The position numbers were made by a program, and so were the translations under genes. From Escherichia coli (GTDB lineage: Bacteria; Pseudomonadota; Gammaproteobacteria; Enterobacterales; Enterobacteriaceae), in assembly GCF_011045215.1 (NCBI RefSeq), contig NZ_CP049202.1: 64,000 nucleotides of DNA. One strand, given 5' to 3'. Positions 21,880 to 22,675 of this stretch are shown in pieces (the stretch's first letter is position 1; the number at the start of each line of letters is the position of its first letter). The notes beneath the pieces are model-generated. The model was not told where the DNA came from and ran no database searches. It saw only the letters and a list, made by a program, of their open reading frames with translations.

Positions 21880-22332
21880 TTAATTACCCGTAGGGTTTTC
21901 TCTCAGTTTTTCTGCCAGTTTTAAAAAAGCATCAAATTCTTTCTGATCTGCACATATTTTACTGGCTGTAACCGACACGGTTATTCCTGATATGTTATTG
22001 GCAGAGTCTTTAACATCATTATTATGGACGGAGACATTATCGGGACTGAAAATATAAACCTTTTCTCTGGGATAATCCCTGTCCACATCCTCCCGCCACT
22101 GAATCTGTTCTTTATCAAAACGGTGATACATTATTGAGGAAAACCGGCACAGCCAGTCGTCAATGCATGACAGCTTATCCAGTAATTGTTGCGAATGACG
22201 GACCTCACTGGCAAGCTGCCGGCACTCCATAATGCACCGTGACACACCACCATTTGCATTCACAAGCGCTTTCATTTCCAGCAGAACACCCATATCAAGT
22301 ATTCTGGAGCCATATTTTATATTATTACTCAT
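21880..22332 (-). CDS. Hypothetical soluble protein (150 aa), AT-rich insert between traU and trbC
   Basis: ORF in an AT-rich stretch; overlaps the upstream membrane ORF by 8 nt; no recognisable domain. Confidence 0.5.
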   Translation of the reverse strand: MSNNIKYGSRILDMGVLLEMKALVNANGGVSRCIMECRQLASEVRHSQQLLDKLSCIDDWLCRFSSIMYHRFDKEQIQWREDVDRDYPREKVYIFSPDNVSVHNNDVKDSANNISGITVSVTASKICADQKEFDAFLKLAEKLRENPTGN

Positions 22333-22675
22333 TACATCCTCCTCTGTTTTTGTTTACACACTTACCTGGCATAAACGCATCAGAGCACAAATATTTAAAA
22401 AACACAGCAGCAAAAGCACACACAAATGCAGCTTTCAGATATAGCCGGACCAGAAACATTTTCCCTGACATATCTGACTGTTGCCATTCATAAATAACCT
22501 CACTGAGGACACTATCAGGAACAAAATAAAACAATATTGCAGGTGCCATTACCAGATTAAAAGGAAACCATTTTAATGGTTCATTTATCAGCCGGATAAG
22601 CACACAACCTGTTCTTTTTAAATTATGTGTGTATTTACTTTTTATCATCTCAATTTTCATAGATATTCCTCTCAT
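22325..22675 (-). CDS. Hypothetical small membrane protein (116 aa, about 2 TM), AT-rich insert between traU and trbC
   Basis: Hydrophobic segments; directly downstream of traU on the same strand. Confidence 0.5.
   Translation of the reverse strand: MRGISMKIEMIKSKYTHNLKRTGCVLIRLINEPLKWFPFNLVMAPAILFYFVPDSVLSEVIYEWQQSDMSGKMFLVRLYLKAAFVCAFAAVFFKYLCSDAFMPGKCVNKNRGGCNE

Follow-up and report, generated by a model that had tools for sequence, protein, structure and literature searches.

In the F plasmid, several small trb genes (trbD, trbE, trbA, trbF, trbJ and trbH) lie among the essential genes for pilus assembly, and many of them are described as membrane proteins that are dispensable for transfer. 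Other small inner-membrane proteins of transfer regions, TraS of F-like plasmids and Eex of the SXT/R391 elements, are highly diverged between otherwise similar elements, and their alleles define specificity groups. Here we describe two small genes, referred to as ORF-M and ORF-S (ORF, open reading frame), that lie between traU and trbC in the transfer (tra) operon of a 64-kb stretch of Escherichia coli DNA (contig NZ_CP049202.1). ‘The window’ refers to this whole stretch of 64,000 nucleotides (nt); coordinates without a locus name are those of the window, where the transfer operon is on the minus strand, hereafter the tra strand. The block that contains ORF-M and ORF-S is one version of a widespread, unnamed accessory cassette that fills this slot in about half of F-like plasmids.

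The two genes resemble the small trb genes of F in being small ORFs placed among, and presumably co-transcribed with, essential pilus-assembly genes; trbE of the window has 41% GC. This resemblance is in kind only, however, as profiles of the two proteins found no sequence relationship with the small trb genes among the ORFs of the window, a 16-kb stretch of F and the R100 tra region. ORF-M resembles TraS and Eex in its small size, its predicted location in the inner membrane and its high divergence between similar elements, but no homology to them was detected. Its closest relatives are found in the same slot of R100 and of pSLT-type plasmids, and as these are uncharacterised, no function carries over from them.

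Distribution and relatives of the cassette

In PLSDB, 4,106 plasmids match the traU end, giving about 4,100 F-like plasmids. When PLSDB was searched with tblastn, an ORF-M homologue was found in 1,975 plasmids (about 48% of the F-like plasmids), covering at least 80% of the query in 1,732 of them. An ORF-S homologue was found in 669 plasmids (16%), with at least 60% identity in 295 and about 32% identity in 374. The exact M and S block of the window is present in 45 plasmids. On the other hand, the empty junction of F type occurs in 1,435 plasmids, or 35% of those matching the traU end, and is thus a minority state.

The homologue was directly upstream of trbC and on the tra strand in every context inspected, namely R100, pSLT, p120899_50, pEA04.2, pM1026-3Ar.3 and contigs L010–L014 and L017–L019. 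R100 has a 101-amino-acid (aa) ORF between traU and trbC (WP_000224416) that is 57% identical to ORF-M over 93 residues (BLASTP, E = 1e-40). In pSLT-type plasmids, the ORF-M homologue has 102 aa and 33–35% identity, and is annotated as ‘OrfF’ (Q93GM9_SALTY, ‘Conjugative transfer protein’). An M-type ORF, also of 102 aa, is found in pHN7A8-like IncFII plasmids (WP_000412447; 40% identity to ORF-M, E = 1e-21). All three are AT-rich genes on the tra strand that start right after the traU stop, and their products have two hydrophobic segments as ORF-M does. Unlike in the window, the ORF of R100 and pSLT is a single gene with trbC directly next to it and no S-type gene, and its product lacks the Cys-containing tail (KCVNKNRGGCNE) of the window protein.

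In the pHN7A8-like plasmids, the M-type ORF is followed by a 173-aa S-type ORF (WP_015059014; G9G1C0_ECOLX), which is 32% identical to ORF-S (E = 6e-19). This protein and the 259-aa fusion proteins described below (P0037 and P0053) are homologous to ORF-S and are encoded directly upstream of trbC. They share with ORF-S the motifs GG..ECR.L, ID....F.SIM, YP.EK.Y and TV..T.S..C..Q.E.D, and a C-terminal GN, although they are strongly diverged and keep only two of the four Cys residues that are invariant in the subtype of the window.

The family appears to be confined to enterobacterial F-like plasmids. A DNA match was found in 226 of 5,426 complete E. coli genomes, where 238 of 239 places were plasmid-borne, and phage records contained no copy. 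Searches of billions of proteins gave only 14–18 protein clusters. When 1.84 billion representatives were searched with a deep ORF-S profile, the 14 matches were family members, fragments, or long repetitive proteins that probably match by composition. A narrow ORF-M alignment, applied to a single genome from each species, gave only two loci, both on short R100-like contigs in unlikely hosts, which are probably plasmid or contaminant sequences. In public annotation, the family members are called ‘hypothetical protein’, ‘Uncharacterized protein’, ‘OrfF’ or, by position only, ‘Conjugative transfer protein’, and a full-text literature search found no paper discussing these ORFs or their accession numbers.

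Because the cassette is present in about half of F-like plasmids, R100 included, it is an ordinary accessory module rather than a new insertion. An earlier note on this DNA had taken the two genes for an insert within the operon, a description that has to be given up: homologues fill the same slot in R100 and in nearly half of the F-like plasmids. The note had also raised the possibility that the ORFs are conserved in related plasmids as known trb genes. Conserved they are, but under no trb name.

The slot upstream of the M-S pair holds further genes in other plasmids. One is a 154-aa minimal P-loop NTPase gene (L002 3098–3562), which has weak generic matches to defence-type ATPases, far below the cut-offs, and another is a 125-aa ORF with multiple transmembrane (TM) segments (L003 3217–3594). 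In CP058024.1 (L002 3411–3888), the M-type ORF is frameshifted into pieces of 95 and 48 aa, with ORF-S intact downstream. This split ORF is either a real pseudogene or an assembly error; intact 126-aa versions exist (P0025 and P0029). In the Klebsiella IncFIB/IncFII plasmid NZ_CP084503 (L020), the traU–trbC slot is occupied by an unrelated, soluble ORF of 58 aa, and a hypothetical ORF of 133 aa separates traW from traU (extra ORFs at L020 2190–2591 and 3598–3774). Thus, several junctions of the operon accept extra genes in the Klebsiella type.

Two genes in the slot

In the window, the tra operon runs, on the minus strand, from traC (26261–28906) through trbI, traW, traU (22689–23681), ORF-M, ORF-S, trbC (21214–21852), a 126-aa ORF and traN (18739–20613) to trbE and traF. 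The longest reading frame of ORF-M, 22325–22675 (−), has 116 aa and begins at an alternative upstream ATG at 22675. However, the ATG at 22660 is likely to be the true start, because AGGA (22670–22667) precedes it by 6 nt, because RefSeq calls this form in plasmid NZ_CP010123 (99.8% identical), and because alignment with homologues begins at its Met. ORF-M would then extend over 22325–22660 (−) and encode an inner-membrane protein of 111 aa with two TM segments and both ends predicted in the cytoplasm.

ORF-S, 21880–22332 (−), encodes a 150-aa soluble protein without a signal peptide. It is preceded by the Shine-Dalgarno sequence GGAGGA (22342–22337), and its start shares 8 nt with the stop of ORF-M (ATGAGTAA, 22332–22325). 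The spacer from the traU stop to the ORF-M start (22661–22688, −) contains the ORF-M Shine-Dalgarno sequence, and the spacer on the other side, with the Shine-Dalgarno sequence of trbC, is followed by the first 60 nt of trbC that encode the signal peptide (21793–21879, −).

The block is AT-rich relative to its neighbours. GC content and GC content at third codon positions (GC3) are 35% and 30% in ORF-M and 41% and 40% in ORF-S, versus 56% and 69% in traU and 55% and 63% in trbC. Every allele examined is AT-rich, with 28–44% GC in the M and S genes and 34–45% GC in the whole slot.

Within the block, no terminator-like site was found on the minus strand. The six promoter-like matches there are not above the expectation from shuffled sequence (3.8 ± 2.1). 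Co-transcription with the pilus-assembly genes, with ORF-S translationally coupled to ORF-M, is therefore the default reading and the one we infer. The block has no Rfam match.

ORF-M and ORF-S are real genes. With a random-codon stop rate of about 6–7% at this AT content, 150 open codons have a probability of about 4e-5 by our own arithmetic, and both reading frames are preserved in homologues as distant as 32–40% identity. The ratio of nonsynonymous to synonymous substitution rates (dN/dS; Nei-Gojobori method, unsaturated pairs) is 0.2–0.5 for ORF-M and ORF-S, versus 0.03–0.09 for TraU of the same plasmids. Selection on both ORFs is, judged from these ratios, purifying yet relaxed, much weaker than on the core gene TraU.

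Much of what the earlier note had read from this stretch stands: two overlapping ORFs on the tra strand between traU and trbC, one of them coding for a soluble protein of 150 aa, in DNA more AT-rich than the neighbouring genes and expected to be co-expressed with those for pilus assembly. Its two-TM protein of about 116 aa has the two segments, but 111 aa is the likelier length.

Edges of the block and the empty junction of F

In F, 8 nt separate traU from trbC, so the absence of the block from F is confirmed. The block without an F counterpart covers window positions 21793–22688, 896 nt versus 68 nt in F. It is thus slightly larger than first described, as it extends from just past the traU stop through the first 60 nt of trbC. 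Alignment against F and R100, which had been proposed for defining an insert, does set these edges with respect to F, but the status of an insert is lost with the ORF-M homologue of R100.

The last 150 nt of traU are 98% identical between the window and F, and similarity ends immediately after the traU stop codon, directly past which all plasmid variants of the slot diverge. On the other side, the first 63 nt of trbC are only 43% identical, whereas the next 177 nt are 98% identical (F trbC 5′ end, L009 6379–6441, compared with window 21793–21852). Similarity to F resumes at the codons of mature TrbC (SENVNTPENRQ...), and TrbC of F differs from that of the window and R100 almost solely at its two ends, in a signal peptide of 20 aa and in about 12 C-terminal residues.

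The 1,435 plasmids matching the F junction by megablast carry both the empty slot and the F trbC 5′ end, so a signal-peptide sequence of its own belongs to the F allele. What F has in its empty slot is, then, one more allele. A search for the origin of the F signal-peptide sequence in slot DNA found no similarity to any slot sequence, and neither notable repeats nor mobile-element ends were seen at the flanks of the block.

Exchange of the cassette between plasmids

The relationships of ORF-M and ORF-S do not follow those of the plasmid backbone. Compared with the window, pEA04.2 (L006) has identical TraU and TraW (100%), TrbC of 85% and TraN of 72% identity, but its M and S proteins are only 40% and 34% identical. 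The opposite holds for a distant F-type transfer region with a different gene order (GCA_017163635.1, contig JAFJXS010000041.1; L011), where TraU, TraW, TrbC and TraN are 66%, 47%, 50% and 45% identical to those of the window, but M and S are 57% and 71% identical. Between these two, the synonymous distance (dS) is 0.42 for S versus 1.37 for TraU. The gene order of L011 is traC, trbI, a TraR-like gene, traW, traU, a 147-aa ORF, traP, M, S, trbC, traN and traF. Thus, traP and the 147-aa ORF are between traU and the M-S pair, and the pair still abuts trbC.

These off-backbone relationships show exchange of the cassette between plasmids by recombination. In another locus (L003), TraU and TraW are 99% and TrbC and TraN 96% identical to those of the window, and S is 99% identical while M is only 64% identical; recombination thus acts between M and S as well. 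Exchange would occur through recombination in the conserved flanks, rather than as a recent foreign insertion into the F-like gene order.

A natural fusion of the two proteins

Fusions of an M-type to an S-type protein exist. The deep ORF-S profile search retrieved a 259-aa protein (P0037) with an M-type two-TM domain at its N-terminus and an S-type domain at its C-terminus. The cluster P0037 has 335 members, mostly 173-aa proteins. Related 259-aa proteins form at least nine clusters at 90% identity, and the fusion is independently supported by P0046–P0053 and by the contexts of P0053, which is indexed in 96 blocks of the collection. All P0053 contexts shown have traU, a separate 103-aa M-type ORF, the fusion and trbC.

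When M and S of the window are joined end to end, they are collinear with the 259-aa fusion, with the M tail aligning on the fusion linker. The 173-aa S-type protein begins inside the end of the second TM segment (TM2) of the fusion, and thus looks like a truncated fusion. In a single comparison, ORF-M of the window was 50% identical to the fusion anchor, 54% to the R100 ORF and 39–42% to the M that L006 and L010 encode separately, upstream of the fusion. As ORF-M is closer to the fusion anchor and the R100 ORF than to the upstream M, there are at least two M lineages.

By hydropathy, ORF-M has hydrophobic segments at residues of about 30–50 and 68–92. There are 6–7 Lys/Arg residues before the first TM segment, one Lys/Arg and five Asp/Glu residues in the loop between the segments, and a Lys/Arg-rich stretch after TM2. 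This charge distribution predicts that both ends are cytoplasmic, and we infer an N-in/C-in topology. For the proteins of the window, R100, L006 and pSLT and for the fusion, the prediction is the same: a basic N-terminus and a pair of hydrophobic segments joined by an acidic loop.

Because an M-type anchor is fused to an S-type domain elsewhere, the separate proteins may also work as one unit, with the S domain on the cytoplasmic side of the inner membrane. The likeliest course is that ORF-M inserts in the inner membrane with both termini in the cytoplasm, that ORF-S is made by coupled translation off the long tra transcript, and that ORF-M holds ORF-S at the cytoplasmic membrane face. The M-S unit would then be made only in cells expressing the tra operon.

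Searches for function

Neither protein has a recognisable motif, as the earlier note had stated: no match in Pfam, NCBIfam, PADLOC, PHROGs or PDB sequences holds up. In particular, none of these five collections showed similarity of ORF-M or ORF-S to a toxin, antitoxin or immunity family. Homology to named tra or trb genes of F was also negative, with no match to a Tra or Trb model of NCBIfam or Pfam and none among the ORFs of the 16-kb F stretch from traP to traG. Searches with M and S profiles (hmmsearch) found no paralogue in the 64-kb window, in the 16 kb of F tra, which ends before traS, or in the R100 tra region including the TraS position.

One candidate was considered and rejected. In PADLOC, ORF-S matched E1-E2 (Cap2-like) at E = 7e-4 and 15.9 bits, which might have indicated a ubiquitin-conjugating-like fold. 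The match was rejected because it was absent in P0005, P0008, P0014, the 173-aa homologue and the fusion.

Possible roles of the M-S pair

We consider it moderately probable that the pair, as one allele of the tra cassette that is exchanged by recombination upstream of trbC, is a conjugation-linked, dispensable accessory factor. Such a factor would serve the F-type transfer apparatus or the donor envelope. On a distant backbone, too, where the genes are ordered differently, the cassette stays beside trbC; this favours a role connected with the transfer apparatus or the donor state, and such a role is the most parsimonious reading. The slot of F is empty, so this role must be dispensable. Both the link to conjugation and the dispensability are tentative. 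Several points weigh against this reading. F conjugates efficiently with an empty slot, so that the pair cannot be a core component, and the IncFIIK slot of Klebsiella holds the unrelated 58-aa ORF. The slot may simply tolerate cargo, its positional conservation reflecting linkage rather than function. The dN/dS of the pair, 5–10 times that of TraU, is compatible with weak constraint and equally with a role driven by conflict. Neither the two proteins nor their homologues gave a significant match in Pfam, NCBIfam, PHROGs or PDB sequences, AlphaFold2 models were too poor to use (mean predicted local distance difference test score, pLDDT, of 54 for the ORF-S family with 11 sequences and 50.5 for the 259-aa fusion with 33 sequences), and binding of M to S, the topology of ORF-M and expression are predictions.

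Pure passenger cargo remains a serious rival, even if we hold it to be rather unlikely. The AT-rich genes would have piled up in a tolerant junction, shuffled by recombination, with an unrelated function or none, or as an H-NS-binding stretch. The slot content is indeed unrelated across lineages, from nothing in F and the 58-aa ORF in IncFIIK to an extra P-loop gene or membrane ORF elsewhere; two more AT-rich blocks lie inside the tra operon of the window, the dN/dS of M and S is high relative to core genes, and F is functional without the pair. However, cargo would be expected at other plasmid, chromosomal and phage sites too, whereas the family is found only directly upstream of trbC, even where core proteins are 45–66% identical and the gene order differs, with all but one of the E. 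coli places on plasmids and none in phages. Moreover, a dN/dS below 1 over saturated dS indicates long-term selection on the proteins. A somewhat less probable idea is that M-S is an unrecognised conjugation module of F-like plasmids, an anchored cytoplasmic domain that sets specificity as a second layer of exclusion or self-recognition, interferes with competitors or protects the donor in mating; its diversity would come from cassette exchange and from the splitting and joining of anchor and domain. A narrower form of it, a membrane-anchored determinant that recognises an incoming or competing F-type transfer system much as exclusion proteins do and diversifies by allele exchange, seems to us a little more doubtful again. 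Alleles that are 32–57% identical between flanks of 99–100% identity, with relationships off the backbone, would suit it, as would a small, AT-rich, inner-membrane ORF-M and the make-up of anchor plus cytoplasmic domain; TraS and TraN likewise diverge by allele in F-like plasmids. Yet these plasmids already have traS and traT, the profiles found no paralogue at the TraS position or elsewhere in the regions searched, and comparison of the window with L003 shows the alleles of M and S recombining independently of each other. Nor, in the few loci compared, does the slot allele follow the type of TraN, as F-type TraN is accompanied by an empty slot in F and by M-S in the window.

A pair of toxin and immunity proteins, or an abortive-infection or defence pair acting for example against pilus-specific phages, is in our estimate the least probable of these readings, although the earlier note had held it compatible with the genes. 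Two small, overlapping, co-transcribed genes that evolve fast, one for a membrane and one for a soluble protein, would have this form, and in some plasmids the small P-loop NTPase adjoins the pair. The single weak PADLOC match was not reproduced in four other family members or the fusion, however, and there is no family match to a toxin, antitoxin or defence system in Pfam, NCBIfam or PADLOC. Toxin and immunity functions are disfavoured by the presence of ORF-M without ORF-S in R100 and pSLT, by M and S being one polypeptide in many assemblies, by the swap of M for a 64%-identical allele next to a 99%-identical S, and by the record in which ORF-M is frameshifted and ORF-S intact (possibly a sequencing error). 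A small defence module is disfavoured by the near-restriction to plasmids and, in every context inspected, to one slot, with no copies in phages or in settings like defence islands. It would be wrong to count the block as a novel insertion or as a candidate defence system.

Other extra genes in the operon

Besides the traU–trbC slot, two more junctions of the tra operon in the window hold extra genes. An AT-rich block at 24688–26260 (32–42% GC) is between traC and trbI, which adjoin in F. It contains a 159-aa ORF with multiple TM segments on the tra strand (25822–26301), overlapping the 3′ end of traC, and a 312-aa ORF on the opposite strand (24940–25878), and no family match was found for either. 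The whole block is present in 24 of about 3,470 PLSDB plasmids, and is rarer than the traU–trbC block.

The other block, at 20614–21217 between trbC and traN, is present in 143 PLSDB plasmids. It contains the 126-aa ORF, which is rich in Cys and His (20837–21217, tra strand), and a 73-aa ORF on the opposite strand (20627–20848) that encodes a zinc ribbon plus a TM segment. In pHN7A8-like plasmids, a 123-aa homologue of the 126-aa ORF is followed by an HNH endonuclease gene. The neighbouring traN of the window is listed with 624 aa, versus 602 aa in F, and is 99% identical to F TraN over 584 residues. Its extra N-terminal residues probably come from an upstream in-frame ATG rather than from a real extension.

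Significance

In Escherichia, Salmonella and Klebsiella, F-like plasmids rank as the main carriers of genes for resistance and virulence, and with F as the model their transfer operons are regarded as well understood. Yet the empty junction of F is the minority state in PLSDB. At this junction, about half of F-like plasmids, including R100, encode a membrane protein that is uncharacterised, and a sixth of them all encode its partner domain as well. To a specialist, a further allele of a very common accessory cassette is no surprise; of mild interest are that anchor and domain split and fuse and that the cassette is decoupled from the backbone. If M and S have no measurable effect, the slot would clearly exemplify a place within an essential operon where cargo is tolerated. 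Should they affect transfer, exclusion or the fitness of donors, some of the natural variation in conjugation among clinical IncF plasmids would be due to a gene that is invisible in studies of F.

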